A DNA stretch of 64,000 nt, taken from positions 6,208 through 70,207 of the forward strand of contig JAUCBJ010001029.1 of the NCBI GenBank assembly GCA_032718475.1, given 5' to 3'. Shown here one piece after another: positions 42,101 through 61,173 of this stretch; the first letter of the stretch is position 1; every line of letters begins with the position of its first letter. A model generated the notes under the pieces. It saw only the letters and a list, made by a program, of their open reading frames with translations, was not told the DNA's origin and ran no database searches. The stretch is from Nemertoderma westbladi. Lineage: Eukaryota; Animalia; Xenacoelomorpha. Made by a program: the position numbers and the translations under genes.

Positions 42101-42532
42101 CCCTGTACGGCCGCGTGTGGTATTGACTGTCCGCACGACCTGCTCTCGTCCAGGGAGTTCGATGTTCTTGCTCCTATCGGGGTACATTGTCGATATTGTG
42201 ATGGGGGAATGTCACCCTGTCCCCTCCCAGCCGGTATGTTTGGTACTGGGGTTGATGTTAATATATTGGGGCCCATACGTCTATCTCCAATAACTCCCCC
42301 CTCCCCTGGATATATGTTATGTCCCTGTGTATTATTATAGTCATGCTGCTGTACCGATATAGGCCTACCTACCTCTCGCCTACCTACCGGTATGTACTCC
42401 GCGACTTCCGGGTTTAATTCCGTCGTTCGCGCTACCCCATCGCCTACTCTATCTCTCCCAGCATGGCCTATAATAGTATGTGCAGTAAGGCCTACAGTAT
42501 GTCCTTCAGTCTGCATGTGCCCTTCCGAACCT
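39105..42532 (-). mobile_element. Truncated LTR-retrotransposon-like insertion with a gag-like ORF and no pol
   Basis: Begins TGTGAC at the satellite junction; ORF 41362..42516 has tandem zinc-knuckle-like motifs; hairpin-rich non-coding part; no paired LTR found. Confidence 0.55.
41362..42516 (-). CDS. gag-like protein fragment (BEL/Pao-like knuckle spacing)
   Basis: CQLHRDGTHKTRSC...RV....GLCHRCVVKGHRSGEC resembles the first two BEL gag knuckles; the N-terminus abuts the satellite. Confidence 0.55.
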   Translation of the reverse strand: MQTEGHTVGLTAHTIIGHAGRDRVGDGVARTTELNPEVAEYIPVGRREVGRPISVQQHDYNNTQGHNIYPGEGGVIGDRRMGPNILTSTPVPNIPAGRGQGDIPPSQYRQCTPIGARTSNSLDESRSCGQSIPHAAVQGTASPQLAGSRATPWQGQKENNTVNKNNPNIPSRPSLDNQNIKSVHINLSAIREGLYRKRYNPGFQCQLHRDGTHKTRSCKYWQALPKRDRVAYTDANGLCHRCVVKGHRSGECWKGKGYERTKPGAEKPISKHKGVGKVEGGVLHTHARLTQCEGALHGQTPRIPRDERGSSRALMPAHIRRGRPAKVAPKRVWRRVRGRIGGQQESAYRKKGHVRVFSRPKFWTEGGGNEGETPFPRTKYKIII

Positions 42533-44201
42533 TATCCTTAGTATCCTTACTATGTATCCTTACTCTATGTAAGTATCCTTACTATGTATCCTTACTCTAT
42601 TTAAGTATCCTTACTATGTATCCTTACTCTATTTAAGTATCCTTACTATGTATCCTTATTCCTTACTCTATGTAAGTATCCTTACTATGTATCCTTACTA
42701 TGTATCCTTACTCTATGTAAGTATCCTTACTATGTATCCTTATTCTATGTAAGTATCCTTACTATGTATACTTACTATGTATCCTTCCTCTATGTAAGTA
42801 TCCTTACTATGTATCCTTACTATGTATCCTTACTTTATGTAAGTATCCTTACTCTATGTAAGTATCCTTACTATGTATCCTTACTATGTATCCTTACTAT
42901 GTATCCTTACTATGTATCCTTACTATGTATCCTTACTCTATGTAAGTATCCTTACTATGTATCCTTACTCTATGTAAGTATCTTTACTATGTATCCTTAC
43001 TCTGTGTAAGTATCCTTACTATGTATCCTTACTCTATGTAAGTATCTTTACTATGTATCCTTACTCTGTGTAAGTATCCTTACTATGTATCCTTGCTATG
43101 TATCCTTACTATGTATCCTTACTATGTATCCTTACTATGTATCCTTACTATGTATCCTTACTCTATGTAAGTATCCTTACTATGTATCCTTACTATGTAT
43201 CCTTACTATGTATCCTTACTCTATTTAAGTATCCTTACTATGTATCCTTACTCTATGTAAGTATCCTTACTATGTATCCTTACTCTATGTAAGTATCCTT
43301 ACTATGTATCCTTACTATGTATCCTTACTCTATGTAAGTATCCTTACTATGTACCCTTACTCTATGTAAGTATCCTTACTATGTATCCTTACTCTATGTA
43401 AGTATCCTTACTATGTATCCTTACTATGTATCCTTACTATGTATCCTTACTATGTATCCTTACTATGTATCCTTACTATGTATCCTTACTCTATGTAAGT
43501 ATCCTTACTATGTATCCTTACTCTATGTAAGTATCCTTACTATGTATCCTTACTCTATTTAAGTATCCTTACTCTATGTGTATCCTTACTATGTATCCTT
43601 ACTCTATGTAAGTATCCTTACTATGTATCCTTACTCTATGTAAGTATCCTTACTATGTATCCTTACTATGTATCCTTACTCTATGTAAGTATCCTTACTA
43701 TGTATCCTTACTATGTATCCTTACTATGTATCCTTACTCTATGTAAGTATCCTTACTATGTATCCTTACTCTATGTAAGTATCCTTACTATGTATCCTTA
43801 CACTGTAAGTATCCTTACTATGTATTCTTACTATGTATCCTTACTATGTATCCTTACTATGTATCCTTACTATGTATCCTTACTATGTATCCTTACTATG
43901 TATCCTTACTCTATGTAAGTATCCTTACTATGTATCCTTACTCTATGTAAGTATCCTTACTATGTATCCTTACTCTATGTAAGTATCCTTACTATGTATC
44001 CTTACTCTATGTAAGTATCCTTACTATGTATCCTTACTCTATGTAAGTATCCTTACTATGTATTCTTACTATGTGTCCTTACTCTATGTAAGTATCCTTA
44101 CTATGTATCCTTACTCTATGTAAGTATCCTTACTATGTATCCTTACTCTATGTAAGTATCCTTACTATGTATCCTTACTCTATGTAAGTATCCTTACTAT
44201 G
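42533..44201. repeat. 13/19-bp satellite, block 2
   Basis: Same units as block 1. Confidence 0.97.
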
Positions 44202-45808
44202 TGTTCGCGGTATTTCAACTTTCCATAACACGAGTTGAATATTTTTGTATTTATTTAAAATTGATTATTCCGATATTACTACTGGGTGCGGGATCATGGG
44301 TTTTGGGCACGTTCAATAAACTGGGGGCGATTTATGGGCGAACTTTGGGGCAACTTACAGGGTACGGGAATAATTTCATAGTTATAAGGGCCAGGGGGGA
44401 TGGAAAATGCAAGCAGTATTCAGGTTAGCCTGAGTACTATTAGGCCCTGGCCAACTTCCTGCTGCCTGTAGGGGTGGATTTGGTAATGCGCCAGGCCTAA
44501 AGGACAAGGACTGCCCTTAGCGGTCCCTGGCCAACGGCAGCTACTACGAGACTGAAAAGAACTCGGAACGCTGACTGCTTGTGTCAGGGATTTGCGACGG
44601 GCACCGACGGCCCCTTAGTAGCCAAGCCGTTCTGGTTCTCGATGATCGAACCCCGGGGTTCGTGAGGGGTGGAGCGGACACGCGAACAGGTGGCCAACTA
44701 ACGACTGCCCCCTGACCTAAGCCGTACTGGTTCTCGATGACCGATCCCTTCGGGGTTCGTGAGGGGTGGGACGGACATGCGAAAGGGCTGGCCACAGGAC
44801 TGGTTTGACAAGGACTGCCCTTAGCGGTCTCGGGTCAACGGCAGCTACTACGAGCCTGAAAAGAACTCGGAACGCTGACTGCTTGACTGGGATTTGCGAC
44901 GGGAACCGACGACAGACCCCTTAGCCAAGCCGTTCTGGTTCTCGATGATCGTTCCCTTCGGGGTTCGTGAGGGGTGGAACGGACACGCGATGGGGTCGAA
45001 AGACAAAGGACTAGACTCGACTAGACTCTACTGGCCTACCGACTGTTCGGAGCAGTTTCTCGGCTGCCGAAGCGACTACGAGCCTGAAACGGACTCGGAA
45101 AGCCTAGGTGGTTGGGTTTCTGTGATGAACTGACGGACCCCTAGCCAAGCCGTTCTGGTTCTCGATGATCGAACCCTTCGGGGTTCGTGAGGGGTGGAAC
45201 GGACACGCGAACGGGTCCACCGACACGACAGACTCCTAGCCAAGCCGTACTGGTTCTCGATGACCGAACCCTTCGGGGTTCGAGAGGGGTGGTACGGATA
45301 CGCGACAGAGTCTACCGACTGGACCGACCCTTAGCCAAGCCGTGCTGGTTCTCGATGATCGTTCCCTTCGGGGTTCGTGAGGGGTGGAACGGACACGCGA
45401 CAGGGTCGACCGACACCGACACTACGGCACTAGGACTAGGACCGAGGGAAAATCTGGGGAACATTAGGTAGGCTAAAATTCTGAGCGAACAGCGGGTTAT
45501 TAAATAATATACCGTAGGGATTTATATTATCGTGTATACTTATTGTGAATATTTGGTGTATATTGATTTGGGGAAGCCCAAAATTATTCTTAATCAAGGT
45601 TCAATATTGTTGAACAAGGTTCAACAGAGTTCAGTTACATTAAAGAGTATATCCAACTAATGCAGCTTTTCTCAACCGCAAACTTGCATCTTAGAAAATA
45701 TTCCCTCCCCACAATCAATATCCGGTGACTGGCCGGGGCTCGGTGGTCTGTTAAGTCACGTCTCCAGCATCGGCGTTTTTCCCCCCTGGTGTAGGAATAA
45801 CGGCAACA
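44202..45808 (+). repeat. 5' LTR
   Basis: TGTTCGCGG...GGCAACA; direct repeat of 56759-58365. Confidence 0.97.
44610..45410 (+). ncRNA. Array of six about 90-nt kink-turn/UUCG stem-loop modules in the 5' LTR (putative cis-acting RNA)
   Basis: Cores start at 44621, 44716, 44924, 45144, 45239 and 45334, with compensatory changes in the stems. Confidence 0.7.
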
Positions 45809-46020
45809 AAATTAAGAATAATTATCGTGGTCAACTTCAACTGGTGGAAGTTGAGAATCCTTCAATACTCTTCAAAAACTCTCTACGTGCTTGCCAGCAC
45901 CCACTACGAGGAAACTCTGGTATTTGAGTTGAGACAAAGTCGTGGTTTAATTAATCAGCAAACTCGATCTAACCAACTCGTAGTCGGCAGATCACATATT
46001 TGGAGAGTTGTTAACAGGGA

Positions 46021-46212
46021 ATGGAAGTATCGATCACACCCATTGATATAATTCAAGTTGAGCCAGGAATCTGGCACGTCGAAGTTGAGGTACAAGGAAC
46101 GAACGTCGGACGATTCAGGATTACTGTTCGGGTGGTTCAAGCTGAGTACAATACCTACGAGGAACTGTTTTACGACATCGCGTATCTCGCCATCGACGAG
46201 GCGTTACAATGA
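46021..46212 (+). CDS. 63-aa upstream ORF overlapping the gag-pol start (ATGA)
   Basis: ATG at 46021; its TGA overlaps the gag ATG at 46209; protein-like composition. Confidence 0.4.
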   Translation: MEVSITPIDIIQVEPGIWHVEVEVQGTNVGRFRITVRVVQAEYNTYEELFYDIAYLAIDEALQ

Positions 46213-49200
46213 CAACAAATAACGTATCCGATACCGACGAGATGGATCACAACACAGACTCGGAAGCCGACGAGGTACCAAACGTCAAAAACATGACCCG
46301 TCGGTTAGGGGCTCTTAAAGGCGGAGTAACCCGAGCGTATCAACGGATGGAGAAACAACTCAAGGGAGTCAAAACCCCCCTCAATGAGGTACAAACTCAG
46401 CTTCAAAGTATCCGAAATATCCTACAGCGGTACGAAAGAATGATACAGGCGTACCAAGAGCTCGTTCCCCCCACCGATCTGGAAAACTACCCCAAGCTGG
46501 AAGAACACGTTGTACATCTAGATGGGTTCCGCAAACAACACCGGAGGACCCTCAGCCTTGTGAGAGGCTATGAGGAACAGTATTACAAGAGGGCTGAAAG
46601 AACAGACGCGGAATCAGTACGATCCTCCAGCATCAGGACAGGAGTACATCGCAAGAGAATGGGGTCCACCAGAAATCAGCACTCCAGCGCTAGGAGCGAG
46701 ATATCCGGCTCAGCGCGCAGTTCTCAAGGGGCGCCGCCACTCCGAGACCAACTGCGAGAGCGGAAGGCATTAGCCCTCAAAGCTCGGATGGAAGATGAGT
46801 ATATTCAACTGCAAGCCGAGCAAGATGTATTAGCTGCAGAAACCCAAAGGCGAGAGGCCGAACAAGCGGCCGAACGGCAGGCCGAACAACGTGAACAGGA
46901 AGCCGAACAACGCAGGCGAGAGGCCGAACAACGCAAACACGAGGACGAACGACAGGCCGAACAGCGCAAACACGAGGCCGAACAACGCAAACAGGAGGCC
47001 GAACAACGCGGACGAGAGGCCGAACGGGAGATCGAACAACGTAAATGGGAAGCAGAAATGCGTAAACAACACGCCGAGGCCCAAGCAATTCTCATCCACA
47101 AAAAGAACGCGGATATTGCAAAACTCGCGGAATACGAAGCCGCACTTATAGAACGAGATATTCAACTCTACGAGGACTGGGAGAGGGATATAGATCAGGA
47201 ATATGAACCAATCCCGGTACCGGAATTAGAAAAGTCATTTATACCGACAGCGGCGAAACTTCCGAAACCCGAAATCCCGCCTACCAAACAGTCTACGCTA
47301 TCGGCACAAGCACCGGTGTTCCATCCACCACCGGCTACGTTAAAGAATGAGGAACCCTATTTCCCATCCAACACCACGACAGCGAGTGTACCCAAGTACG
47401 AGCCTGAAAAGGACTCGGAACGGGACGCCACTCCCCGATCAAACAACCCATTTACATCAACACCACTAACTCGCAGCCGCGTCATTATTAAAACTCCGCC
47501 TATCATTGATCCATCAAGTATGGGAGTGAGTGCCAATAACTATAACCCTCCGAGTCACTCCAGTTCAGACGATGTCAGCATCATCCGGGCGTTGGAGAAC
47601 CGCCTTGCCATGCCGAAGATGGAGATTCGCACCTTCGAAGGAGATCCCGTCGATTACCTCAGATTCAAGAAACGGTTCTTTGCGCAGATTGGATCAACGG
47701 ACATAGCCGACGCACAGAAATTGGTATATTTATCGCAATACCTGGGTGACAAACCCCGCAGAATTGTTGCATGTTTTGAAGGAGGTTCTCATGAGGCATA
47801 CTATGACGCATGGAAAACTCTAGACAAAAGATACGGAAATACCGGAACTATAATTAATAAAACTCTAGAGAGACTGATACAGGATGCGGGATCACTAGGG
47901 GACCCACAGAACATACAGGAATTCTCCGACTCTATGAAAGATGCCTATTATACTCTGAAACCCTTAAATAAGGAGGACCAGGTGAACAACATTCTAAACC
48001 TCCGACAGATCGCCCGGAAGTTCCCCGGATGGCTACAAAGTAAGTGGGCTTATAAATGTGTAGATCTCTGGCGCAGACATCCAGATCGAGATCCTAGCTT
48101 CCTTGAAATGTCGGCATTCCTGGATGATATCTCCGAAGCCATGAATGACTCGATGTTTTCAAAACAAAGTCTCGCAAAGTTGGACGGAATAGAGAGCAAC
48201 TCTAGGAGTAAGATAACCCCTCCGAAACCGAGATTCCGCCCCCCACCGGTAAGTACGATGGCCATTACCATGGCCGAGGATTCCGACGACGAAGACTACG
48301 AGGAACCGACATCCGCTGAGGAATGGGCATGTTATCTCGCGAGTTGGGCACCCGAAAGGGAAGGCATCACAAATTCCCTGCTCTGTCTCTTCTGTGGGGA
48401 GAAACATAAAGTGGAATTCTGCAGGAAGTTTCAGTTCGCCGAACTCGTCCCACGTTTCGAGGCGATAATGAAACACCGAGGATGCTTCCGGTGTCTTGGA
48501 ACAGGTCACTACGTTCGGGATTGCGACCAAAGGTCGTGCTGTGCTGTCTGTAACGACCAATGCCATCACACGCTCCTCCACATCCCCGCGAACTTCGACT
48601 TTACTACCCTCCCCTTTCGGATCGAAGCCAGGCGAAGAGGAGAAACAAACCACGTCTTCAAAGGAACCCGGACAACCCAACGGAGAGAAACCAACCCGTT
48701 TAAAATCTCCACCGATACACCACAAGTAACAAATATTTCGGCCACGATTAATCTTATAAATCGCCGCTACATGGTTTTCGCAAAGGTAATCCCAGTAAGG
48801 ATCCAAGGAGTCGGCAAATCTTTGACGACACTCGCATTCCTCGATAACGGGTCCGACGGAACCATCATTGACCGGGATTTTCTCGAGCAACTCGGCCTAG
48901 AATATGAGCCTTGTAAACGGCCCATACAAACCATCACCGATAACAGAGAGGTAGAGTCCGGGGAGGTGCAACTCCAGATGGAAGGAGTGATGAAGGGCTA
49001 CGAAACGGCTAAGTTAACCATAAAGAACGCCTTGGTACACACAGACCTCCGGGTGCGATTCCGACAATCAGCCGAGTACGCCCCCCTCATACAATTGGAC
49101 CGGGACGATGTAGACCTGAGGTGTCCGCAGTTGGACGTAAACCGTATCACCCTACTGATCGGACTTGATACACCGGAACTACAAATCCCCACCGGAGATA

Positions 49201-51695
49201 TCGCCCGATCTATAAACCAGGATGACGGATTTTATGCTGAACGAACAATAATGGGATGGACACTCTGCGGCATTAAGGAGGAAACCACGGACACCTATAC
49301 CTACCTTCCCAAATGTCAGATTAAAGAGAATGTAACCTCCGTGGGTTACTGCTCAGCTTCGGATCTCGACGAGGATTTGTTTCTGGAAACCGAGAAAACC
49401 CAACGAGAGATGACAAAATATTTTAATTTGGAGACCCAGGAGTTCGCGGAAAAGGACGAAAATCCATCCGAAGAGGACCAATATTGTATGGACGTTCTCG
49501 ACCAGGCCACGTTTAAAGACGGACACTGGAGTTCACCTATGTTATGGAAGGACCCAAACAAACCAATGGCAAACAACGCCAGCATGGCACTTAGGCGACT
49601 TAAAGGGATTCTACGCCGGTTGAATGACCAACCCGAGATAAAGGAGAAGTATAACACCGTAATCCAAGGATATCTCGATGATGGATTAGCAGAAATGGTA
49701 CCACGGAACGAACTGCAAGGTGGTAAAAGAACATATTATCTCCCGACCCACTATGTAGTAGAAGCCCGCAAAGGTGGGAAAATCCGAGTGGTAAATGATG
49801 CTGCCGCTATATACCAGGGCGAATCCCTAAACAGTCAACTTTATACGGGACCCAACATATATAGCACACTCATCGGCGTATTGATCAGGTTCAGGGAAAA
49901 CCGGGTAGCATTCACCTGTGACATCAAGGCCATGTTTCATCAAGTTCGTACATTACCAAGAGACTCGGACTGTCTACGTATCCTATGGACGGATAAAACG
50001 CTCACTCAACAGGAGATTAGCCAACTCACGATAAAGGACGTAGACATAATGCGTATGGTCGTCAGGATCTTCGGCGCTAAGGACTCGCCGGTAGCATGCA
50101 GTGACATGCTAAAGAGGACGGCAACCATGTGCGAAAACGAGTTCCCTCCAACCGTCATAGAAACCATTCGACGATGCTTCTACGCGGACGACGGATGCGC
50201 TGGCGCGGATAATGTAGATGAGGCGTATCAGCTAGCAATGGGGATGGTAGAATGTCTAAAGAAAGGAGGGTTCCCACTCGTGAAGTTCAGATCCCACGAC
50301 AAAACACTTATGGAGAAGTTTCCGGAGGACATCCGGCTGGAAAATAACAAGATGTATTCGGAGGATGTGGAACATCGTGTACTCGGGATTGAATGGGACA
50401 TAGAATCAGATGAATTCATCTTCAAATATAAACCCCTACCCAAGCCTATGACAAAAAGGGGATGTTTGTCGATAAAAAGTGCAATCTTCGACCCACTAAA
50501 TTTCATATCTCCAGTAACCTTGGCCGGAATGAACCTGATTAAGGAAATGTGGATAGAAGGACTGGGATGGGACGAAGAGCTTCCCCCATACCTTAGCGTC
50601 AAATGGAGAAAATGGACGGAGCAACTCGAACATCTACATCTTATGCGGATACCTAGACCGTTCTTCCTCGATAAACTGCCCACCGATATCTTCCAGCTCC
50701 ACACCTTTTCGGATGCTTCAAATACCGGAATCGGCGTAGTAACCTTCTTACGGAGACTAAGTAGCGATGGAAACGGCGATACAAGCTTCTTATTCTCCAA
50801 AGCAAAGACGGTATCCGGGGAATTCGTAGCAACGATTCCGAGACTCGAGCTACAAGCTGCAGTTTGGGCAGTAAGACAGAATCGCATGGCCATGCGGAAC
50901 CTACGGATCCCCATAGAATCTCAACACTTCTGGGTAGATTCGAGTATAGTTCTCTATTATCTCCACTCTCCATCACGGCGTCACACCACGTTTGTTGCAA
51001 ACCGAGCCACAGAGATTAAACAGTGTACCGGCCGAGAACAGTGGCATCACGTAAACGGGAAGGAAAACCCAGCGGACTTATCAAGCCAAGGCGCCACCCC
51101 AAAACAACTCGGTAAAAGTAAACTCTGGCTTACAGGCCCGGAATTCCTACGGCAGCCACAGTTAACATGGAGTACCCGATTCGACCCCGAACTCGATAGC
51201 GGAAAATACTCCGAGGACGATAAAGAGATTCGTAAAATCCATCGAAGCAACGCGGTGGAAATTTATAGTTGCCTGACTGAGCCTGCAAAGGACTCGGGCA
51301 GGCACTATAATGTCGCGACGATCACTCAACTAGCGACGTCTTTACATCGGTTGATCGAGCGAACTTCATCCATGAGACGGCTCGTCCACCACGTTATAAC
51401 CCTTCGCAACTTCCTACGGTGGAAAAACAACAAACCGATAGTTCAACGGAATATACAAGAACTCATTATCGCGGAGAAGTGTATTGTTAGATATGTCCAG
51501 AAAGAAAGTTTCCCCGATGAATGGGAACAACTTAGTGCGGGCAAAACGTTGAAACCGGACAGCCCAGTCTACCAACTAAGACCAATGATGGGAGAGGACG
51601 GACTGATCCGACTGAATACCCGGATGGCAAACGCCCCGGTCGAATATGAGGTTAAATACCCGGCGCTTCTGCCCGCTTCTAGCTTCTTCTTCTAG
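46209..51695 (+). CDS. BEL/Pao gag-pol polyprotein (gag with 3 zinc knuckles, protease, RT, RNase H), terminating before the integrase
   Basis: FEGDPVDY..F...F (DUF1759-like); CLFCGEKH, CFRCLGTGH, CAVCNDQCHHTLLH; FLDNGS protease; YYLPTH..KIRVVNDAA, DIKAMFHQV, FYADD RT; LHTFSDAS, TIPRLELQAA, WVDS, NPADLSSQG RNase H. Confidence 0.96.
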   Translation: MTTNNVSDTDEMDHNTDSEADEVPNVKNMTRRLGALKGGVTRAYQRMEKQLKGVKTPLNEVQTQLQSIRNILQRYERMIQAYQELVPPTDLENYPKLEEHVVHLDGFRKQHRRTLSLVRGYEEQYYKRAERTDAESVRSSSIRTGVHRKRMGSTRNQHSSARSEISGSARSSQGAPPLRDQLRERKALALKARMEDEYIQLQAEQDVLAAETQRREAEQAAERQAEQREQEAEQRRREAEQRKHEDERQAEQRKHEAEQRKQEAEQRGREAEREIEQRKWEAEMRKQHAEAQAILIHKKNADIAKLAEYEAALIERDIQLYEDWERDIDQEYEPIPVPELEKSFIPTAAKLPKPEIPPTKQSTLSAQAPVFHPPPATLKNEEPYFPSNTTTASVPKYEPEKDSERDATPRSNNPFTSTPLTRSRVIIKTPPIIDPSSMGVSANNYNPPSHSSSDDVSIIRALENRLAMPKMEIRTFEGDPVDYLRFKKRFFAQIGSTDIADAQKLVYLSQYLGDKPRRIVACFEGGSHEAYYDAWKTLDKRYGNTGTIINKTLERLIQDAGSLGDPQNIQEFSDSMKDAYYTLKPLNKEDQVNNILNLRQIARKFPGWLQSKWAYKCVDLWRRHPDRDPSFLEMSAFLDDISEAMNDSMFSKQSLAKLDGIESNSRSKITPPKPRFRPPPVSTMAITMAEDSDDEDYEEPTSAEEWACYLASWAPEREGITNSLLCLFCGEKHKVEFCRKFQFAELVPRFEAIMKHRGCFRCLGTGHYVRDCDQRSCCAVCNDQCHHTLLHIPANFDFTTLPFRIEARRRGETNHVFKGTRTTQRRETNPFKISTDTPQVTNISATINLINRRYMVFAKVIPVRIQGVGKSLTTLAFLDNGSDGTIIDRDFLEQLGLEYEPCKRPIQTITDNREVESGEVQLQMEGVMKGYETAKLTIKNALVHTDLRVRFRQSAEYAPLIQLDRDDVDLRCPQLDVNRITLLIGLDTPELQIPTGDIARSINQDDGFYAERTIMGWTLCGIKEETTDTYTYLPKCQIKENVTSVGYCSASDLDEDLFLETEKTQREMTKYFNLETQEFAEKDENPSEEDQYCMDVLDQATFKDGHWSSPMLWKDPNKPMANNASMALRRLKGILRRLNDQPEIKEKYNTVIQGYLDDGLAEMVPRNELQGGKRTYYLPTHYVVEARKGGKIRVVNDAAAIYQGESLNSQLYTGPNIYSTLIGVLIRFRENRVAFTCDIKAMFHQVRTLPRDSDCLRILWTDKTLTQQEISQLTIKDVDIMRMVVRIFGAKDSPVACSDMLKRTATMCENEFPPTVIETIRRCFYADDGCAGADNVDEAYQLAMGMVECLKKGGFPLVKFRSHDKTLMEKFPEDIRLENNKMYSEDVEHRVLGIEWDIESDEFIFKYKPLPKPMTKRGCLSIKSAIFDPLNFISPVTLAGMNLIKEMWIEGLGWDEELPPYLSVKWRKWTEQLEHLHLMRIPRPFFLDKLPTDIFQLHTFSDASNTGIGVVTFLRRLSSDGNGDTSFLFSKAKTVSGEFVATIPRLELQAAVWAVRQNRMAMRNLRIPIESQHFWVDSSIVLYYLHSPSRRHTTFVANRATEIKQCTGREQWHHVNGKENPADLSSQGATPKQLGKSKLWLTGPEFLRQPQLTWSTRFDPELDSGKYSEDDKEIRKIHRSNAVEIYSCLTEPAKDSGRHYNVATITQLATSLHRLIERTSSMRRLVHHVITLRNFLRWKNNKPIVQRNIQELIIAEKCIVRYVQKESFPDEWEQLSAGKTLKPDSPVYQLRPMMGEDGLIRLNTRMANAPVEYEVKYPALLPASSFFF

Positions 51696-51715
51696 CGCCA
51701 CCAATCACTCAAAAG

Positions 51716-52738
51716 ATGGCCGACTTACCAGCCACCCATCTACAAGCGGATTCCCAGCCATTCTACGTCACCGGGGTGGACTGTTTCGGACCGTTCACGG
51801 TTATTGAACGACGATCCAACATCAAATGCTGGGGAGCCATCTTCACCTGCCTGAGGTCTAGGGCAATTTACCTAGATATCGTGGTAAATCTGACACAACA
51901 CGCATTCATCAACGCTCTGCGTCGGTTCGTGGCGAACAACGGGACATGCCGCCACATGTATTCCGATAATGGTACAAACTTTGTGGGAGGAGAAAGGGAA
52001 CTCAGAGAGGCGATCGAGGGATGGTTTACCGATAACACCGCATCCCAAGTCTGGAAGGAACACCAGATACAGTGGCACTTCCAGACCCCCTTAGCCCCCC
52101 ATACGAGCGGGGTATGGGAGAAACTGATCGACCTCGTGAAACGATCCATGCGCGTCGCTCTAGGCGATACCCGGGTAACCCATGACACCCTCCGCACAAC
52201 ATTCTGCGAGATCACGGCTACCCTGAACAACCGACCTATTGTCCCTATCCGCGACGACCCCACAGACCTGGAGCCCCTCACTCCTAACCACCTACTGGGG
52301 AGACCCAAAACCCACGTTCTCCCGGAAACCATGTTCCCGGATCCCAACGAGATCGCGAAGCATACAAACTGGAAAAAGGCCCAAGCGTTGGCAGCGCATT
52401 GGTGGAGAATTTGGGCCCAGGAATATCTCATAACCCTCCGGACCAGGAGAAAATGGAACAACACCTACCGGAACGTCGCAGTTGGCGACATGGTACTAGT
52501 TAAAGAAGATCTCAAAGACCGCGTTCACTGGCCTGTGGCGCGGGTCGTGACCATACACCCAAGTAAAGACGGACTTGCGAGGACTGTGACGATACGAACG
52601 GCAAAGGGCCACTACCAACGCCCTATCCAGAAGCTGTGCCTTCTTGAAGGCAATGATAGTGGTGACTCTACGAGAGGTGATAAGATCCCTACTCAAGATC
52701 CTGCTGTGGACATTGGTGACAATTACAAACCCGTGTAA
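51716..52738 (+). CDS. BEL/Pao integrase core and C-terminus, out of frame with pol and lacking the HHCC zinc finger
   Basis: MADLP..PF..TGVDCFGPF, SDNGTNFVG, GVWEKLI, NNRPI, LTPNHLL, WPVARV..DGLARTV..RPIQKL. Confidence 0.93.
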   Translation: MADLPATHLQADSQPFYVTGVDCFGPFTVIERRSNIKCWGAIFTCLRSRAIYLDIVVNLTQHAFINALRRFVANNGTCRHMYSDNGTNFVGGERELREAIEGWFTDNTASQVWKEHQIQWHFQTPLAPHTSGVWEKLIDLVKRSMRVALGDTRVTHDTLRTTFCEITATLNNRPIVPIRDDPTDLEPLTPNHLLGRPKTHVLPETMFPDPNEIAKHTNWKKAQALAAHWWRIWAQEYLITLRTRRKWNNTYRNVAVGDMVLVKEDLKDRVHWPVARVVTIHPSKDGLARTVTIRTAKGHYQRPIQKLCLLEGNDSGDSTRGDKIPTQDPAVDIGDNYKPV

Positions 52739-53016
52739 CCCTTCTCATCATGTTGACAAACTCCTTTAAACTGTGATTTATCGACAACGAGTTATGGACC
52801 CCCCTTAAACCAACTGTAACCACGCAATGGTATTTGTGTTTCCTCGTGTGTTATGTGGAGTCCAGCGTCACCCTGCAGATGTTTCGACTGACGCAGGGTC
52901 GTTTATGTATTGTTTACCCTGATTTTGGTCATCGGGACCAACGATATTGGATTATTGGAAATGGAAAAGATTTGAAGTGGAATTCATTGTATTCATCGCA
53001 GTATGTTATGTTGTCC

Positions 53017-53427
53017 GTTGCGTGCGCAGTTCGGGGCGTAGGCGGTGTAACGAGTCCAGCTGTAGATCCCGGATTGCCGCGCAACACCCCCTCTATCCCG
53101 TTATTCTGGTGGGTCCATGGTGCATCCACGTGACTTCGACGATAGAGGGTTTTATGTTTCTCAGTCGCGTTATTCTGGTGGGACCGTTACGTGGATTTTG
53201 GGGCGTAGGCGGTGTAACGAGTCCAGCTGTAGATCCCAGAATGTTGCGTAACCCCATCCCACATGACTTCGTCGACTGAGCTTTATGTTGTTGGGAGTGT
53301 TATTCTGGTGGGTCCCTGGTGCATCCACGTGACTTCACTCCTAGCGTCTTCATTGTCCGTTACGTGCGCAGTTTGGGGCGTAGGCGGTGTAACGAGTCCA
53401 GCTGTAGATCCCAGATTGCCGCGTAAC
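53017..53427 (+). ncRNA. Triplicated structured RNA module between the integrase and the extra ORF
   Basis: Invariant core GGGGCGTAGGCGGTGTAACGAGTCCAGCTGTAGATCCC closed by covarying stems at 53017-53085, 53186-53252 and 53359-53427. Confidence 0.6.
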
Positions 53428-53990
53428 ACCCCTTCCACGACAAAGATTAACCAAAGAAAATGATTGAATATAGTTGGAAATGATGAAAAGGATCAGACAA
53501 CTCTGCTATAAACCTGAATGATGATGCGTATGCTGATGAAAATGTAATGATGCGCACCCTGGTGTTGCGCTTATAACCAATGATGATAGCCGGGGGGCTA
53601 TAAACCCAATGATGATGTGGAAATAAATAAATGTGAAATAAATGGTGGAAATAAATGTGTTGAAATATATGTGGAAATAAATGAAATGAAATGAAATAAT
53701 AATGAAATGAAAAAAGACAAAAAAAAAGGTATAAAAGAGGTCAAAGAAAAGAATTGGAAAAAAAAAGGACAAAAAAGTCATAAAAAACTGGTTGGATATT
53801 ATGTATAGCTATAGTAACTGTAAATGCTGAATGTATTAGCAATAAGATGATAGATGCCTATATAGCAATGTTATTTTATAAACTGAATTAAATAAAAACT
53901 GAATTATTCTGCTATCGCTATATGCTATAGTTTCAGACTTTCTGGACTTATAATTAACTGAACTAATTTGTAACGGATATAATCGTAAAT

Positions 53991-56591
53991 ATGGACCCAA
54001 ATCGCCAAATTATCGGCGAATTACGTAACACGGTAGATCTACTGGAATATTCGCAACCCGGATCCCCTGACTTTGATACGAATTGGAGCACCCTACTAAA
54101 TGAGAATGTGCGAGTCATTAAATTCACCGGGCGAGAGGGACCGGATTCTAAGAATCTACGAGCCCTCCGGTTAGCCGATGCTAGTACGAGACTGAAAAGA
54201 ACTCGGAACGCAAAGGCAACCGGAGGGGACGATTCGTCGTTTTGGGAAACGTTCCGACAGAGCGTCTACAGATCCCGATGTTTGATCTACGACAACGAGG
54301 GAAACGCGACGCCCACCTCGAAAGCGATTACGTTGGCGAGATGTCAAAGTTTCGTCGACGACAAGAGTACGTACCTCGCCCACTGGGGAAACCTGTCGGA
54401 GTGTACGGCGACGCTTCGAGAGGAACGCATATCGATTATCCAAAACCGCGACGACTACCAGGAAAAGTACGGGGCGAAAGAATACGGTCGATCCTTAGTC
54501 GTCGTCCTCGGAACCCTGGACGGTTTGGTACTGGTGTGCCGAATATTCCCGACACCCAGACAGGAAGTGCAGGCAGCCGGAGCGATCTGGTTGCTGCCTC
54601 CGGAAATCCAAAAGATCCTCTTCGACTTCGACGTCATTAAAATCGGGTCGGATATCAAGGCGGACGTCCGGAACGACTACGCGAATGCTCCTACAGGAAG
54701 AAACCGACGAGACGACCTCAACGCCCTTAGCCATTGCATCGACACTCAAACGCTACTAGCCTGGTTACGATTCGCCGAGTTCATGCGAGGATTCCAAGAG
54801 GTGAGACCGACGAAATCCGGGATCGGCTACCTCGCTGTGCTCAACGGCGGTATCGACTTCAAACCCCAGAAATTCCGGGACTATAATAAAATATACGGTG
54901 GATACCCGGGATTGGAAATAAAGAGCGAGCGAGAGGGTCGATGGAAGGACGTTGATCGGAAATGGACGATACACCAAAGATGGGAGAATCCCGATCGACG
55001 GAACTACGTTTACGTCGTTATGGAATGCTACACCGTCGCTAAGTTTATCTGTAAAACTCTCGATAACCTTATTACGGCGGTCCCCCTTTCCTTCGTCGAC
55101 TACGACTGGAATGAGGTTATAAACCACGCGTTTAAAGCGGTCGAGAACATTACACCGGGAGAATCGAAAACGCCCGCCGTTATCGATTCCTGGGACGAGA
55201 GCGGACCTTACGACATCCCTACGATTACCGAACTTCTCGGTGCGGAGGAGCCTCTGATCTCCTCGGAAGGGGAAGAGATATGGCTAAACGAGGGTGTTCT
55301 ACTCTCCACCCCGAAGCGACAACTCGAGCCGGAGGCCGCGTACGGACCGGCCGCCAAACGGGTTGCCTCGGCCGAACCGATGAAGAGAGCAGGCGTCTAC
55401 ACCCCACGCGGCTCCGGTAGCCCCGCGAGAGAGGTAGCCACTACAGCCGCATTGAGCGACTTTGGCGACATATGCCAACGGTTATCCCCGTATCCTTTCC
55501 CGGGCGGCGAAGATTGGTCGTCGGAGATTCCGAGTACCAGCCAACAACGGACCCGCTCAGCGATACTGGTCGAGGAAGGCCCCAGCGATGCGCCGACACC
55601 CGACGATCTCCTCGGTATCCCTCCGTCGAAAACCCCGGCACCTCTTCGCCGACCAGCGGTAGCTACTACACCCGCCGTTCCTCAGGACCCTATGCGACTA
55701 ACCCGTTGGTACGCCGAGCAAACTGAATGGATCCACCGCCAGAAACGGTCATCCGAGTTGAGACCAGCGGGACACAAAGAGGGTTATCGAAGCGAGAACA
55801 TACTACGCAAAAGCCTAGCATTCCGCGGGCTACCGACCACCGAGAATATTCCGAAGAGCGACCGACTACTCGAATACTACGCCGGCGTCCCGATTCCGAT
55901 ATTCACCGGTCGAGAGATGCAGTTGGAGGTATGCGGCGACTGCGGTTCGGAGCAGTGCCCACGCAGCAGAAGGAATCGGGTTACCGATTCTTGCCTCCAG
56001 CTCCTCGGGATACTCTATTGCCCATACTGCGCGATATCGGGCCACGACGTTTCGGTCTGTCCGATCCTTTATAACCTCTGCACCACGTGCGGTTTCCGTG
56101 GACATTCCGCTAGCCCCCGCTGCTATATTAAATGTCCAACCAAGGACGTTACCGCTATGGGCAATATGGTCATGTTTGAGACATACGCAAACAGCCATTT
56201 AAAGACCAAGTTTCGGAGAAACGCTCGGAATATCGCGCAGGAGATGGCGTGCGGATATTTCTCCTTCCCGGAACGCCTCCACACGTCGGCCTCGCTACCC
56301 TTCCATTACGTGGATCTGCTACTGAGCGCCGGATTATTCGGTCCATTCGAAGTTATTAGACGATTATATTCGTATAAAGAGGAGTTCGGTGATGGAGAAT
56401 GGTTCCTAGAGGCACGCAACTCCGAGTTGCAAAGACGAACCGACATGATACCGTTGCCTTCGAAAGGAAGAGCCGCCAGGAGACAAGCCGAAGCGTTACT
56501 CACAATGGATGTTGACGCTCCTCTACCAGCCATAGCGATCGATGAGAGTCGACGGGCGAAGAGACGAAAAGCGTACCAGAAAAAGAAGTAA
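53991..56591 (+). CDS. Extra retrotransposon ORF (866 aa): degenerate DEDDy 3'-5' exonuclease-like domain, Pro/Ser-rich linker, Cys/His clusters, basic C-terminus
   Basis: LPPEIQKILFDFDVIKIGSDIKADV, CIDTQ, SGIGYLA, W......YVYVVMECY parallel WRN/EXD-family motifs; CGDC, CPYCAISGHDVSVC, CTTCGFRGH; intact 2.6-kb ORF inside the LTRs. Confidence 0.8.
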   Translation: MDPNRQIIGELRNTVDLLEYSQPGSPDFDTNWSTLLNENVRVIKFTGREGPDSKNLRALRLADASTRLKRTRNAKATGGDDSSFWETFRQSVYRSRCLIYDNEGNATPTSKAITLARCQSFVDDKSTYLAHWGNLSECTATLREERISIIQNRDDYQEKYGAKEYGRSLVVVLGTLDGLVLVCRIFPTPRQEVQAAGAIWLLPPEIQKILFDFDVIKIGSDIKADVRNDYANAPTGRNRRDDLNALSHCIDTQTLLAWLRFAEFMRGFQEVRPTKSGIGYLAVLNGGIDFKPQKFRDYNKIYGGYPGLEIKSEREGRWKDVDRKWTIHQRWENPDRRNYVYVVMECYTVAKFICKTLDNLITAVPLSFVDYDWNEVINHAFKAVENITPGESKTPAVIDSWDESGPYDIPTITELLGAEEPLISSEGEEIWLNEGVLLSTPKRQLEPEAAYGPAAKRVASAEPMKRAGVYTPRGSGSPAREVATTAALSDFGDICQRLSPYPFPGGEDWSSEIPSTSQQRTRSAILVEEGPSDAPTPDDLLGIPPSKTPAPLRRPAVATTPAVPQDPMRLTRWYAEQTEWIHRQKRSSELRPAGHKEGYRSENILRKSLAFRGLPTTENIPKSDRLLEYYAGVPIPIFTGREMQLEVCGDCGSEQCPRSRRNRVTDSCLQLLGILYCPYCAISGHDVSVCPILYNLCTTCGFRGHSASPRCYIKCPTKDVTAMGNMVMFETYANSHLKTKFRRNARNIAQEMACGYFSFPERLHTSASLPFHYVDLLLSAGLFGPFEVIRRLYSYKEEFGDGEWFLEARNSELQRRTDMIPLPSKGRAARRQAEALLTMDVDAPLPAIAIDESRRAKRRKAYQKKK

Positions 56592-56758
56592 TGGATTGGG
56601 ATATTCCAGGAACATTTATCGAACATTTATTTTTATACAAACTCTAGGCCAAATTAATTAAAAACTATGCAATATTAAATTTGGGATTTTTTATATTGGG
56701 AATGACCTACGCAAACTCAATCGACCGACAGACTTCACGAAGGTCATTGGGGGGGGAC

Positions 56759-58365
56759 TGTTCGCGGTATTTCAACTTTCCATAACGCGAGTTGAATATT
56801 TTTGTATTTATTTAAAATTGATTATTCCGATATTACTACTGGGTGCGGGATCATGGGTTTTGGGCACGTTCAATAAACTGGGGGCGATTTATGGGCGAAC
56901 TTTGGGGCAACTTACAGGGTACGGGAATAATTTCATAGTTATAAGGGCCAGGGGGGATGGAAAATGCAAGCAGTATTCAGGTTAGCCTGAGTACTATTAG
57001 GCCCTGGCCAACTTCCTGCTGCCTGTAGGGGTGGATTTGGTAATGCGCCAGGCCTAAAGGACAAGGACTGCCCTTAGCGGTCCCTGGCCAACGGCAGCTA
57101 CTACGAGACTGAAAAGAACTCGGAACGCTGACTGCTTGTGTCAGGGATTTGCGACGGGCACCGACGGCCCCTTAGTAGCCAAGCCGTTCTGGTTCTCGAT
57201 GATCGAACCCCGGGGTTCGTGAGGGGTGGAGCGGACACGCGAACAGGTGGCCAACTAACGACTGCCCCCTGACCTAAGCCGTACTGGTTCTCGATGACCG
57301 ATCCCTTCGGGGTTCGTGAGGGGTGGGACGGACATGCGAAAGGGCTGGCCACAGGACTGGTTTGACAAGGACTGCCCTTAGCGGTCTCGGGTCAACGGCA
57401 GCTACTACGAGCCTGAAAAGAACTCGGAACGCTGACTGCTTGACTGGGATTTGCGACGGGAACCGACGACAGACCCCTTAGCCAAGCCGTTCTGGTTCTC
57501 GATGATCGTTCCCTTCGGGGTTCGTGAGGGGTGGAACGGACACGCGATGGGGTCAAAAGACAAAGGACTAGACTCGACTAGACTCTACTGGCCTACCGAC
57601 TGTTCGGAGCAGTTTCTCGGCTGCCGAAGCGACTACGAGCCTGAAACGGACTCGGAAAGCCTAGGTGGTTGGGTTTCTGTGATGAACTGACGGACCCCTA
57701 GCCAAGCCGTTCTGGTTCTCGATGATCGAACCCTTCGGGGTTCGTGAGGGGTGGAACGGACACGCGAACGGGTCCACCGACACGACAGACTCCTAGCCAA
57801 GCCGTACTGGTTCTCGATGACCGAACCCTTCGGGGTTCGAGAGGGGTGGTACGGATACGCGACAGAGTCTACCGACTGGACCGACCCTTAGCCAAGCCGT
57901 GCTGGTTCTCGATGATCGTTCCCTTCGGGGTTCATGAGGGGTGGAACGGACACGCGACAGGGTCGACCGACACCGACACTACGGCACTAGGACTAGGACC
58001 GAGGGAAAATCTGGGGAACATTAGGTAGGCTAAAATTCTGAGCGAACAGCGGGTTATTAAATAATATACCGTAGGGATTTATATTATCGTGTATACTTAT
58101 TGTGAATATTTGGTGTATATTGATTTGGGGAAGCCCAAAATTATTCTTAATCAAGGTTCAATATTGTTGAACAAGGTTCAACAGAGTTCAGTTACATTAA
58201 AGAGTATATCCAACTAATGCAGCTTTTCTCAACCGCAAACTTGCATCTTAGAAAATATTCCCTCCCCACAATCAATATCCGGTGACTGGCCGGGGCTCGG
58301 TGGTCTGTTAAGTCACGTCTCCAGCATCGGCGTTTTTCCCCCCTGGTGTAGGAATAACGGCAACA
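56759..58365 (+). repeat. 3' LTR (with a second copy of the structured RNA array, about 57167-57967)
   Basis: Direct repeat of 44202-45808, preceded by the PPT. Confidence 0.97.
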
Positions 58366-58824: not shown

Positions 58825-61173
58825 TAGTCGAGTCAATCTAGCAAAAAACCCATAAGTATTTCGCAATTAATCCGAACCACACATTTTGGATTCTATATTA
58901 CCTTATTAATGACCAAAAAAAAAGTCTATAAGATTTTATTTTGCGGATCATATGTTTATTAATGGAAATTCTGTGTAAATTTGCATAACACAAGCCAAAC
59001 AAAAGGAACATTAGGGAAGAGTAAGTAGCAAATTGGTGATGTTCCAGAATAATTTAATTAATTTCACAATAAGCTGTGATTCAATGTGAAATTAGTAATA
59101 TTTACACTGGCGTGTTACACATTAATTGCTATATCTCGGAAACTAGAAGTCGCATCAAATTTTAAAATATATCAAAAACTTTACGATATATTAAGGAAAC
59201 CGTTGTAAAAAAAAATCATACATTTCCACTGCAAGGAAATTTCATAATTTCCATTAATGTTAGCGAAGATTTTTCACATAATAAAATTGTGATTGCTCTA
59301 TTGATTTTAGGTGTAATTTATTTATTTCTTTTAGTTTGAAAACCACAATAGTTTATCATATAACAAATAAATTTTTTGGGGATAAGGGTATTTGAGGTCG
59401 ATAAATCCGATGGGCGAGGTTACATCCACCGGTTTAGTAGATAAGTTGTGTAAGTAAGGTCCTTATATTGTACCAGCAAAATTGGTATTAAAAATGGTTA
59501 AATTATTAGACAAATTTCCGTTGCTCTGGAAACTAAATTGGTAACCATATATAAGTATCATTAGAGTAAAGTTTGTCTGTATCAAATTTGGACTATTTGA
59601 TATCAATTTGGACTAAAGGTCAACTAAAGCCTCTCCCCAAGAAAGGAGACCTCGGCATACCAACAAACTATCGTGGGATCTGTCTGCTTGTGGTAGCTGC
59701 CAAAATATACAATAAAATGATTTTATATAGGATTAGGCCTCTCATAGAGAAACTACTGCGTAAGAGCCAAAACGGATTTCGACCAAGTAGATCAACAATA
59801 GCTCAGATACTTGCACTACGGAGACTGATTGAAGGAATTAAGTCAAAGAATCTCCCCGCAGTCATGACTTTTGTGGACTTCAAGAAGGCATTCGACTCCA
59901 TCCATAGAGGTAAAATGCTTGAAATCCTAAGAGCTTATGGAATACCAGAAGTAATTGTTGCTGGCATTGGATTGTTATATTGTGACACAGAAGCGCAGGT
60001 ACTCTCACCAGATAGTGAAACTGAGTTTTTCTCAATCCTGGCTGGCGTACTGCAAGGTGACACATTAGCACCATTACTATTTGTAATTGTGCTGGATTAC
60101 GCAATGAGGACGGCCACAAAGGGTGAAGATCTGGGATTCACACTTCAAGAACGCAGAAGTAGTAGATATCCGGCAACTACAGTCACAGACACCGACTTTG
60201 CGGATGACATCGCCCTGCTCTCTAATACGCTAGCAGATGCACAGCTTCTACTAAATAAAGTGGAGAGGGCTGCTAAGGAGGTTGGATTGTATATAAATGC
60301 TACCAAGACCGAATTCATGACCTTTAATGTTGATGGAAACTTGACAACCATTGATAATAATCAACTAAGGAAGGTCGATGACTTCCAGTACCTTGGATCA
60401 TGGATAGAGAGTAGCAAAAAGGACATAGAAGTTAGGAAAGCAAAGGCTTGGGTAGCTCTATCAAAAATGGATACCATCTGGAAATCAGATCTCTCCAGGC
60501 ACCTGAAGACTAAGTTCTTTCGAGCCACAGTGGAAAGTGTATTTTTATACGGGGGTGAGACCTGGACACTGACTAAATCACTTGAACAACGAATTGATGG
60601 TTGCTACACAAGACTACTAAGGGCAGCCCTAAACATCAGCTGGAGACAACACATGACAAACGCCGAGCTTTATGGTACAATACCACCTGTATCAACCACC
60701 CTCCGTGAACGCAGATTAAGATTCAGTGGGCACTGCTGGCGAAGTAAAGACGAGGTCATACCAGATCTACTTCTCTGGCAACCAACTCATGGAAAGCGTA
60801 GTCGTGGACGACCTGCCATAACATATATAGATCAACTTGAAAGTGATACTGAACTTGGGAGAAACGAAATTGCGACAACTATGGAGAATCGGGAAGCCTG
60901 GAAGGATCTCATTTCCACTGTCCGAGTTCGCTCGACCTAGTAGTAGTAGTAGTATCAAATTTGGAGAAAATCCCACCTATAGACCCCTTGTTGCTAAGTA
61001 AAATCAATGTTGCTAAGGAAAGAAACAGGAAATTGAAGGTGATCCGCATAATATATTTTTATAGACTTTATTGGGGGTATTAACAAGGTAATGTAGAATT
61101 AAAAAAATTGGTCTGGATGAATTGCGAATTTGTTATGGGTTGACCCCCTTTTTCGGATAGATTGACTCGCCTA
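58825..61173. mobile_element. Non-autonomous TIR DNA element (about 1 kb) interrupted by an RTE
   Basis: Imperfect TIRs TAGTCGAGTCAATCTA..ACCCATAA..TTCGCAATT / AATTGCGAA..TTATGGGT..TAGATTGACTCGCCTA; possible TAT target duplication. Confidence 0.7.
59593..60951 (+). mobile_element. 5'-truncated RTE-clade LINE with an uninterrupted RT domain
   Basis: PKKGDL..NYRGI, QNGFR, FVDFKKAFDS, GVLQGDTLAP, FADDI, FQYLGS; (TAG)n tail; 14-bp TSD GTATCAAATTTGGA (59579-59592 and 60952-60965). Confidence 0.95.

Follow-up and report, generated by a model that had tools for sequence, protein, structure and literature searches.

A BEL/Pao retrotransposon with a putative DEDDy-type exonuclease gene in the env position and repeated RNA motifs predicted to fold

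The window, the whole 64,000-nucleotide stretch of Nemertoderma westbladi DNA that was analyzed, contains a 14.2-kb BEL/Pao copy with two LTRs of 1,607 bp each that differ at three sites (Table 1). The assignment is based on the LTRs, a polypurine tract, and a target-site duplication, seen as an identical 5-bp flank at both element ends, a 5-mer that the surrounding satellite commonly carries. It is also based on the Pao-type PR-RT-RH-IN domain order, with Peptidase_A17, DUF1759, and DUF5641 identified by Pfam. Pfam gave no RVT_1 match in the window pol, but this region aligned with relatives that have the domain. A check for a tRNA primer-binding site found no TGG directly 3' of the 5' LTR, where other copies vary. 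The gag-pol domain set and order, the LTRs, and the polypurine tract are common to Belpaoviridae, whereas both element length (14.2 kb) and LTR length (1.6 kb) lie above the ranges stated for that family, which are 4.2-10 kb and 0.2-1.2 kb (PMC8742986).

Table 1. Features of the element, in window coordinates
Feature	Position	Strand	Details
5' LTR	44202..45808	+	1,607 bp, TG..CA ends, duplicated internally
Three GAAA-loop hairpins, 5' LTR	44535-44578, 44839-44882, 45067-45110	+	Bulged-G-like ACUA/GAA flank
Six k-turn rods, 5' LTR, span	44613..45405	+	3-nt bulge, tandem G.A/A.G, U at L3
Individual rods, 5' LTR	44613-44690, 44708-44787, 44916-44995, 45136-45215, 45231-45310, 45326-45405	+	
gag-pol ORF	46209..51695	+	DUF1759, zinc knuckles, protease, RT region, Peptidase_A17, integrase start; early end
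Hairpin in gag	47387..47430	+	AGUA/GAA flank, frame 1
Degenerate hairpin in pol	51266..51309	+	Without bulged-G flank; 42 bits versus 52-59 for the others
Integrase core and DUF5641, other frame	51683..52738	+	After break, ~47 residues missing
Three intergenic rods	53011-53093, 53178-53260, 53353-53435	+	Identical 38-nt apex; stem changes preserve pairing
Candidate splice acceptor	53931..53936	+	~55 nt upstream of ORF3 start, inferred
ORF3, env position	53991..56591	+	866 aa
Hairpin in ORF3	54175..54218	+	AGUA/GAA flank, frame 0, 5' of exonuclease core
DEDDy-type exonuclease domain	54252..55091	+	Residues ~88-367; D101, E103, D225, Y341, E345; ~55-aa insertion after ExoI
Cys-rich domain	55932..56270	+	Residues ~648-760; CxxC, two CCHC-type knuckles, conserved helical tail
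Polypurine tract	56749..56757	+	
3' LTR	56759..58365	+	1,607 bp, TG..CA ends; second set of six rods and three hairpins

A sequence-only reading of the window had called the element young, and the three LTR differences in 1,607 bp bear this out; its coding capacity is nevertheless damaged, with a broken integrase and a gag-pol that stops at 51695. The ~47 residues absent at the integrase frame change hold, in the relative L004, the integrase H2C2 zinc domain, and because they are missing the window copy is, as judged from its sequence, non-autonomous. The copy is a young, integrase-broken member of a high-copy BEL/Pao family.

In some BEL/Pao members a third gene is described as env-like and as having no known function (PMC8742986, PMC3118150), whereas the third gene of the window element, ORF3, encodes a putative exonuclease. 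The earlier claim of an intact 866-aa extra ORF in the env position held (53991-56591, no stops). In the relatives L007, L009, and L001, a pyrimidine tract and CAG lie immediately upstream of the ORF3 start; they were not seen in L005. An exonuclease fold had also been proposed, and profile homology to the DnaQ-like fold upheld it: the ORF3 family profile matched trypanosome RNase D (E = 3.7e-8), EXD2 (1.2e-7), and Egalitarian (4.6e-4), and the relatives L009 and P0014 scored above the Pfam DNA_pol_A_exo1 cut-off. The window ORF3 alone had no Pfam match, its fold being assigned via the family profile (1.9e-23). The match to RNase D (PDB 7c45/7c42) covered the zinc part as well as the exonuclease part, the CCHC zinc-knuckle domain being a feature that the earlier reading had missed. 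Single-sequence searches with ORF3 gave no match in a word-indexed protein database, the PDB, or viral contigs, and Foldseek gave none at E<=0.001 (the top row, EXD2 at E = 0.35, was not counted as evidence). Both AlphaFold models of ORF3 were unusable (pLDDT 33 and 37), and the ESM Atlas provided leads only, with an exonuclease cluster at 0.93 (161/256 features shared) and the zinc part at 0.86 or less.

Across the aligned ORF3 rows, D-x-E was present at ExoI in 11 of 11 and D at ExoII in 9 of 11. At ExoIII, 8 of the 11 rows have D and the other three have E, among them the window protein (Y341-x3-E345). Several MAFFT runs placed no D/E at ExoI of the window ORF3, and an early reading of the alignments as a catalytically dead protein was dropped after profile and ExoI block scoring. 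The D101/E103 block scored 14.8 (runner-up, 3.8), a level reached in 9 of 2,000 shuffles, in a placement that needs an insertion of ~55 residues. By this scoring, the window ORF3 likely keeps all four acidic residues, and ORF3 would therefore resemble trypanosome RNase D more than Egalitarian. The proposal of a non-catalytic, Egalitarian-like protein thus lost ground, since D101/E103, D225, and Y341/E345 are likely kept and no LOTUS-type family was reported. Dead-looking members do occur in the family, P0005 being without the ExoI E and L001 without the ExoII D.

Homologues of ORF3 sit 3' of BEL pol in L004/L005 and L007/L009, which represent two further deep lineages, and 3' of integrase remnants in L003 and L010, and the pol of ORF3-bearing relatives is ~26% identical to that of the window. 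At least three deep BEL lineages carry the exonuclease and zinc-knuckle gene, which is under purifying selection between L007 and L009 (dN 0.15-0.23, synonymous sites near saturation). On the best reading of these comparisons, ORF3 is an accessory RNase gene of long standing that several BEL lineages share. The ORF3 tree, with 15 rows (leaving out P0002, P0004, P0007, P0009-11, P0013, P0015-17, P0019, and P0020), was dominated by long branches and gave the window protein no resolved position. In L012, visual inspection suggested an SGNH-like stretch, which further analysis did not bear out.

A DEDDy-exonuclease ORF3 has already been described in the Juno/Vesta LTR elements of bdelloid rotifers and in Athena/Terminon (Rodriguez et al. 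2017, PMC5408684). As far as the available text of that study goes, Juno and Vesta share with the window element a DEDDy-type ORF 3' of pol that replaces env and largely keeps its catalytic residues; spliced messages are given there as the usual route of ORF3 expression. In contrast to the BEL/Pao window element, the rotifer hosts are non-BEL; the window ORF3 family (630-1,180 aa) has a CCHC-knuckle domain, which that study does not describe for ORF3, mentioning only a Cys-His-Cys motif in two families, and the motif variant is DEDE here and DEED in rotifers. Rotifer LTRs of 159-551 bp, for which the same available text does not mention motif arrays, compare with 1,607 bp and arrays in the window. 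No named rotifer protein was among the matches in the ORF3 homologue searches, and the rotifer likeness is drawn from descriptions.

The RNase D of Trypanosoma brucei (TbRND; PDB 7c42/7c45) is like ORF3 in having CCHC zinc fingers after a DEDD exonuclease domain, and according to the text available its CCHC domain binds RNA and raises cleavage (PMC7797062). TbRND, a cellular enzyme that acts on guide-RNA U-tails, has its four fingers side by side. ORF3, by contrast, belongs to a mobile element and combines two knuckles, a CxxC, and a helical tail with a long linker of low complexity. The similarity between them is remote, and the shared architecture may be convergent. The cellular proteins Egalitarian and EXD2 belong to the same DEDDy exonuclease fold family as ORF3.

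Each of the six LTR rods has a C stem, a 3-nt bulge, tandem G.A/A.G pairs, and an NC stem, and five of the six have UUCG as the apex loop. A generic k-turn scan of the LTR found six, against 0.1 expected, and all 15 k-turn core columns (25-33, 54-59) were invariant while 26 of the 82 rod columns varied. Twelve kink-turn rods had been counted earlier; there are 12 model matches, but these count the LTR twice and represent six distinct copies (six per LTR). In the available text of PMC5579392, box C/D and U4 k-turns have the same 3-nt bulge, G1b.A1n and A2b.G2n pairs, and C and NC stems, and U.U at 3b.3n, found in four of six rods, is as in 15.5K-binding k-turns. The predicted geometry of the rods fits this 15.5K-binding type; unlike box C/D and U4, the window k-turns lie in hairpin rods repeated in an LTR, without guide sequences. 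Both-sided changes affected 3 of 25 rod pairs, only one of them in the rod body, a level reached by 41 of 500 shuffles. Folding z ranged from -2.6 to +0.7, two of the six rods folding worse than shuffles, and 100-nt windows across the LTR had a mean z of -0.6. Position 57934, one of the three sites at which the LTRs differ, disrupts a C-G pair of rod 6 in the 3' LTR. A GAAA tetraloop 11-nt receptor at the rod base was considered and rejected: C:G and AA are present in 6/6 rods, but the handle U and the G:U each occur in 1/6, and there is an extra A. An Rfam search of the motifs returned no family above the gathering threshold (best E = 1.2-1.3), and ribozyme, snoRNA, and tRNA identities were rejected.

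The bulged-G (loop E / sarcin-ricin type) pattern consists of AGUA opposite GAA between two helices. Among the six hairpin copies the flank is AGUA in two, ACUA in three, and absent in one. The nine hairpins reported earlier correspond to nine model matches but to six distinct copies (three per LTR and three in ORFs), of which the pol copy is degenerate. Hairpins recur in coding frames with differing closing stems that still pair. The claim of frame-independent conservation was borne out by the gag and ORF3 copies, which lie in different frames and have 21 fixed bases in common (chance expectation in the internal region, 5e-9). None of 500 shuffles matched the hairpins for paired cells or covariation score, and 55 of 500 did so for two-sided pair changes. 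Viral contigs contained 0 matches to the hairpin motif.

The triplicated intergenic module noted earlier was recovered as three matches to a model built from the copies. These rods had 3 of 25 pairs changed on both sides (21/500 shuffles), with all 73 cells paired and z of -2.0 to -3.0. A second short repeated element lies near them, with starts near 53099, 53168, and 53299. The plus strand folded better than the minus strand in 3/3 tests. The covariation claimed earlier was good for the hairpins and fair for the intergenic rods but weak for the k-turn rods. From these sequence comparisons we regard the RNA motifs as real, comprising 6 k-turn rods, 6 hairpins, and 3 intergenic rods.

The sequence-only reading had joined ORF3 and the motifs into a matched protein and signal module, and had named beforehand relatives with the gene but without the motifs as evidence against it. 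Such relatives were found, all of them distant (pol ~26%): in 12/12 ORF3-bearing loci (91,388 bases scanned with filters off; three of the loci have a 3' LTR that looks complete), nothing exceeded 14.6 bits for the three motifs, against 42-111 bits for self matches, with models built from three to six similar copies that could miss diverged versions. Generic k-turns were not in excess in 7 regions from relatives, bulged-G hairpins numbered 0 in 9 loci, and dispersed motif-like repeats were seen in none of the 8 loci tested. Because distant relatives carry the gene without the motifs, the enzyme and the RNA structures are likely two separate features, not one matched system. A lineage-specific pairing may exist, all motif-less relatives being distant.

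The explanation we favor, at a probability of roughly 55%, is that ORF3 is a likely active 3'-5' RNA exonuclease steered by its zinc knuckles, and that the motifs are family-specific cis signals read by host proteins or Gag, not by ORF3. The ORF3 product would come from a spliced message, and its knuckles would hold single-stranded RNA ends and pass them to the DEDDy site in the manner of trypanosome RNase D, so that short or tailed RNA 3' ends would be trimmed or destroyed; the most likely substrates would be either silencing RNAs of the host or tails of the element RNA itself. The motifs may have spread through internal duplication and template switching, and been retained because they fold. 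The k-turns could bind the host L7Ae-family protein 15.5K/Snu13, with the RNA thereby stabilized or routed, and the hairpins in LTR, gag, pol, and ORF3 could act as multivalent packaging or localization marks. If the rods do recruit 15.5K/Snu13, a retrotransposon would be borrowing a snoRNP core protein. The published main texts searched contained no report of a BEL/Pao element with a DEDDy third ORF or of LTRs with k-turn arrays, and the combination of k-turn arrays with frame-independent hairpins in an LTR element, for which there is no Rfam family, was likewise not found in that literature. As a single assayable protein, ORF3 makes the role of DEDDy cargo in retrotransposons directly testable.

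An unlikely alternative is that ORF3 is active and that, in this lineage alone, the arrays evolved as its partner, serving as roadblocks or landing sites that shield the element's RNA ends. The 5' LTR has a TATA-like box (44383) and two poly(A)-like hexamers (45499 and 45639) that would place the rod and hairpin array in R, at both RNA ends. This suits such a role, as does the marking of gag, pol, and ORF3 by hairpin copies, and the comparison of joint gain and loss covers distant relatives only. However, relatives with an intact-looking enzyme have LTRs of ~240-650 bp and no rod or hairpin arrays, so protection would not be obligatory. Slightly less probable still is a self-encoded RNP for localization or packaging, in which ORF3, as a non-catalytic Egalitarian-like adaptor, binds all three motif families. 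Egalitarian is among the profile matches, the ExoI placement in the window ORF3 is uncertain, and in the available text of PMC13186709 Egl-BicD recognizes stem-loops that are kinked and bulged, among them a retrotransposon signal, that of the I-factor. Against this stand the four acidic positions likely kept, the better match of RNase D to the architecture in both domains, and the motifs missing in 12/12 ORF3 loci; moreover, Egl as described there requires LOTUS-like domains and BicD, whereas ORF3 has knuckles instead and no Pfam match to LOTUS-like domains.

It is also improbable that the LTR rods are DNA-level enhancer repeats or neutral duplicates that fold by chance, with only the intergenic rods and hairpins, or none, being selected RNA. 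The weak rod covariation, the two poorly folding rods, and the mean z of the 100-nt LTR segments agree with this, the six k-turns descend from one ancestor and so amount to about one event (0.1 expected per LTR), and Pao itself is known, from the descriptions available, to have tandem LTR copies. Opposed to it are the invariant k-turn core, the better folding of the plus strand, the coding-frame hairpins whose closing stems differ yet pair, and the intergenic stem changes, which all preserve pairing. Very unlikely, in our estimate, is an anti-silencing nuclease with self-protection, in which ORF3 would destroy host small silencing RNAs while 15.5K-coated rods, with GAAA hairpins docked in receptor-like loops at the rod bases, would block the enzyme and hold genome RNAs for packaging. 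For the docking idea, two critical receptor positions fail in the rods. One hairpin copy lies within ORF3 itself, an observation that we counted against our favored explanation of an active exonuclease with separately read motifs.

The element at 44202-58365 is best read, at a probability of roughly 55%, as carrying two layers that can be told apart: an accessory RNase of old standing, encoded by the 866-aa extra ORF in the env position (ORF3), and cis RNA signals specific to this family. The ORF3 knuckles would feed single-stranded RNA 3' ends into a DEDDy site, with silencing RNAs or tails as the most likely targets, and for the family-specific motifs the readers would be host proteins or Gag.

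The element was 14,164 bp long, with two 1,607-bp LTRs that start with TG, end with CA and differ at 3 sites, confirming that it is real and its LTRs nearly identical. It was assigned to BEL/Pao because the long ORF contained DUF1759, a protease and Peptidase_A17, and the integrase part DUF5641 (Pfam domains). Both its size and its LTRs exceeded the ranges stated for that family (4.2-10 kb, LTRs of 0.2-1.2 kb; PMC8742986). The insertion site was a 13/32-bp satellite flanked by coding parts of a Vps16 gene, the N-terminal part on one side and the C-terminal part on the other; the satellite, the element and other repeats between these parts likely lie in one giant intron. The integrase of the window copy was broken, with the ORF stopping at 51695 and the core resuming in a different frame, and ~47 residues were missing that in L004, a locus with an ORF3 homologue, hold an H2C2 zinc domain. 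Other copies from two sequencing runs skipped ~635 bp in this region (51635-52271), so integrase-deleted sub-families are common. Contigs matching the element occurred in 4/4 runs (15,130, 6,413, 237, and 14 records), one of which may be the window's source; their differences from it were numerous and rich in transitions, which indicates a high-copy family.

Features of the window and of loci carrying ORF3 homologues
Feature	Location	Strand	Remarks
1,253-aa ORF	window 15640-19401	-	31 copies of a 12-aa repeat; no Pfam match
Vps16_N and Vps16_C coding parts	window 22380-23606 and 61930-63249		~38 kb apart
Second insertion in the element's satellite	window 39100-42540		weak zinc-knuckle ORF (41362-42531, -); C/T-rich repeat array
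BEL/Pao element	window 44202-58365
Long ORF	window 46209-51695
Stretch skipped in other copies	window 51635-52271
A-rich spacer ahead of ORF3	window 53470-53900		five TGATGA and five AATAAA hexamers
ORF3	window 53991-56591		866 aa
Insertion after ExoI	window 54330-54425		more hairpins predicted, among them one whose stem spans 12 bp and one that ends in a GAGA loop
RVT_1 ORF, non-LTR type, and partial copy in inverted orientation bearing 49-bp tandem repeats	window 59570-60940 and 63585-64000
ORF3 homologue between 126-nt repeats	L001:8165-11145		repeat copies 76% identical
P0002	L002:79-2022		exonuclease part shortened, zinc domain in two copies
1,177-aa member	L012:250-3780		SGNH/GDSL-like stretch (by eye) ahead of exonuclease
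Regions compared between L007 and L009	L007:3135-10042 and L009:1580-8447

By itself, the window ORF3 protein had no Pfam match. A search of 1.84 billion representatives recovered 8 homologues at E<=0.001, and later profiles added 2 of 7,990 candidates and then 9 of 5,424, none named beyond 'hypothetical protein'. Two domains are common to these homologues: one at the N terminus, and one that is rich in Cys and contains two CCHC-type knuckles. An 11-row family profile matched trypanosome RNase D across the exonuclease and zinc domains alike (E 3.7e-8), as well as EXD2 (E 1.2e-7) and Egalitarian (E 4.6e-4); a profile built from relatives only matched the window protein at 1.9e-23, and L009 and P0014 passed the Pfam DNA_pol_A_exo1 cut-off. 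The consulted part of PMC7797062 describes the CCHC domain of RNase D as the source of RNA binding and as increasing cleavage. Judged by eye, the L012 member resembles a fused rotifer ORF3 in joining an SGNH/GDSL-like stretch to the exonuclease; neither Pfam nor PDB confirmed that stretch, and the contig, found in a bacterial MAG, is probably a contaminant there.

Early alignments showed no acidic pair at ExoI of the window protein. An HMM and a larger alignment placed ExoI at D101/E103, followed by a ~55-residue insertion, and with an ungapped 17-residue profile this block scored 14.8 versus 3.8 for the next best, a result matched by 9/2,000 shuffles. In the 11-row alignment, which leaves out P0002, P0004-P0007 and others, D-x-E was present at ExoI in 11/11 and D at ExoII in 9/11, with D (8 rows) or E (3 rows, the window protein among them) at ExoIII; P0005 lacks the ExoI E. 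On these placements an enzyme is the likelier identity of the protein, ahead of an adaptor of the Egalitarian type, though the structure models were unusable.

The 12 ORF3-bearing loci comprised 10 out of 245 candidate stretches scanned and 2 out of 15. ORF3 lay downstream of BEL pol in four (the near-identical L004/L005, and L007/L009, 88% identical in pol), with ~26% identity to the window's pol, and downstream of an integrase remnant in two more (L003, L010). L001 had no pol within 10 kb upstream and is possibly a non-autonomous unit with ORF3 as its only gene; the remaining five were short or lacked a pol match. Between L007 and L009, dN was 0.23 (exonuclease) and 0.15 (zinc domain) with synonymous sites near saturation, and pS was 0.67-0.76 in ORF3, far above the 0.52 of pol, which hints at an exchange of ORF3 modules between element families. 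A pyrimidine tract and CAG precede the ORF3 start in L007, L009, and L001, as does TTTCAG ~55 nt upstream in the window, suggesting that ORF3 may be made from a spliced message; the many ATGs upstream of ORF3 argue against simple scanning to it.

The 12 k-turn rods and 9 hairpins of the sequence-only reading were present, but they reduce to six distinct copies of each, as each LTR repeats its set: six rods and three hairpins per LTR, plus one hairpin apiece in gag, pol, and ORF3. Every rod combined a C stem, 3-nt bulge, tandem G.A/A.G pairs and NC stem, like the k-turns in the consulted part of PMC5579392. A generic k-turn scan of the LTR found 6 versus 0.1 expected, all from one ancestor, with 15/15 core columns invariant and 26/82 rod columns variable. 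The rod basal loop resembles a GAAA receptor; because two positions, critical according to the part of PMC2275092 consulted, are each missed in 5/6 rods, this likeness is a lead only. Candidate TATA and poly(A) signals, if they hold, would place the LTR array in R. The gag and ORF3 hairpins had 21 fixed bases in common in different frames (5e-9 expected), in agreement with the proposed frame-independent conservation. Hairpin closing stems differed in sequence yet still paired, and 5/6 hairpins had a flank that we take to be bulged-G-like. The three intergenic rods had an identical 38-nt apex, 73/73 paired cells, and 3 double changes. Covariation was good for the hairpins (0/500 shuffles for paired cells and for covariation score; 55/500 when counting pairs with both sides changed), fair for the intergenic rods (21/500) and weak for the k-turn rods (41/500). 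Folding z was -2.0 to -3.0 for intergenic rods and -2.6 to +0.7 for k-turn rods, and Rfam gave nothing above threshold for any motif. LTR repeats acting at the DNA level, or neutral ones, are an unlikely explanation.

Models of the three motifs matched the window's own copies only: over the 12 ORF3 loci (91,388 bases, filters off) the best scores were 10.9, 14.6, and 11.9 bits, versus 42-111 for self. Generic k-turns numbered 0-3 in 7 relative regions (0.2-1.5 expected), 9 relative loci had no bulged-G hairpins, and 8 tested had no dispersed motif-like repeats. L005, L007, and L009 each had an apparently whole 3' LTR of ~240-650 bp (boundaries inferred). ORF3 therefore does not need the motifs, within the limits that the relatives compared are all distant and the motif models narrow. 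A matched protein and RNA-signal system, as first proposed, thus found no support, and with acidic ExoI, ExoII, and ExoIII positions likely kept in the window protein, an Egalitarian-like adaptor forming a self-encoded RNP is improbable, despite the weaker profile match to Egalitarian. A lineage-specific pairing, in which the motifs would act as roadblocks to the nuclease, is doubtful, if slightly less so. We retain the two-layer reading.

The features of the element are real and unusual. DEDDy ORFs in the env position have been described in rotifer Juno/Vesta elements, which the window element resembles in this respect, and in Terminons (consulted parts of PMC5408684, PMC6431247, and PMC6338049), and the title of a Pao paper names tandem LTR repeats. 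Among literature covered mostly as listings, outside Repbase, Dfam, GyDB, and subscription papers, we found neither an exonuclease ORF in BEL/Pao nor a k-turn array in an LTR. Elsewhere in the window, the repeat-bearing 1,253-aa ORF is possibly a transposase-like gene.
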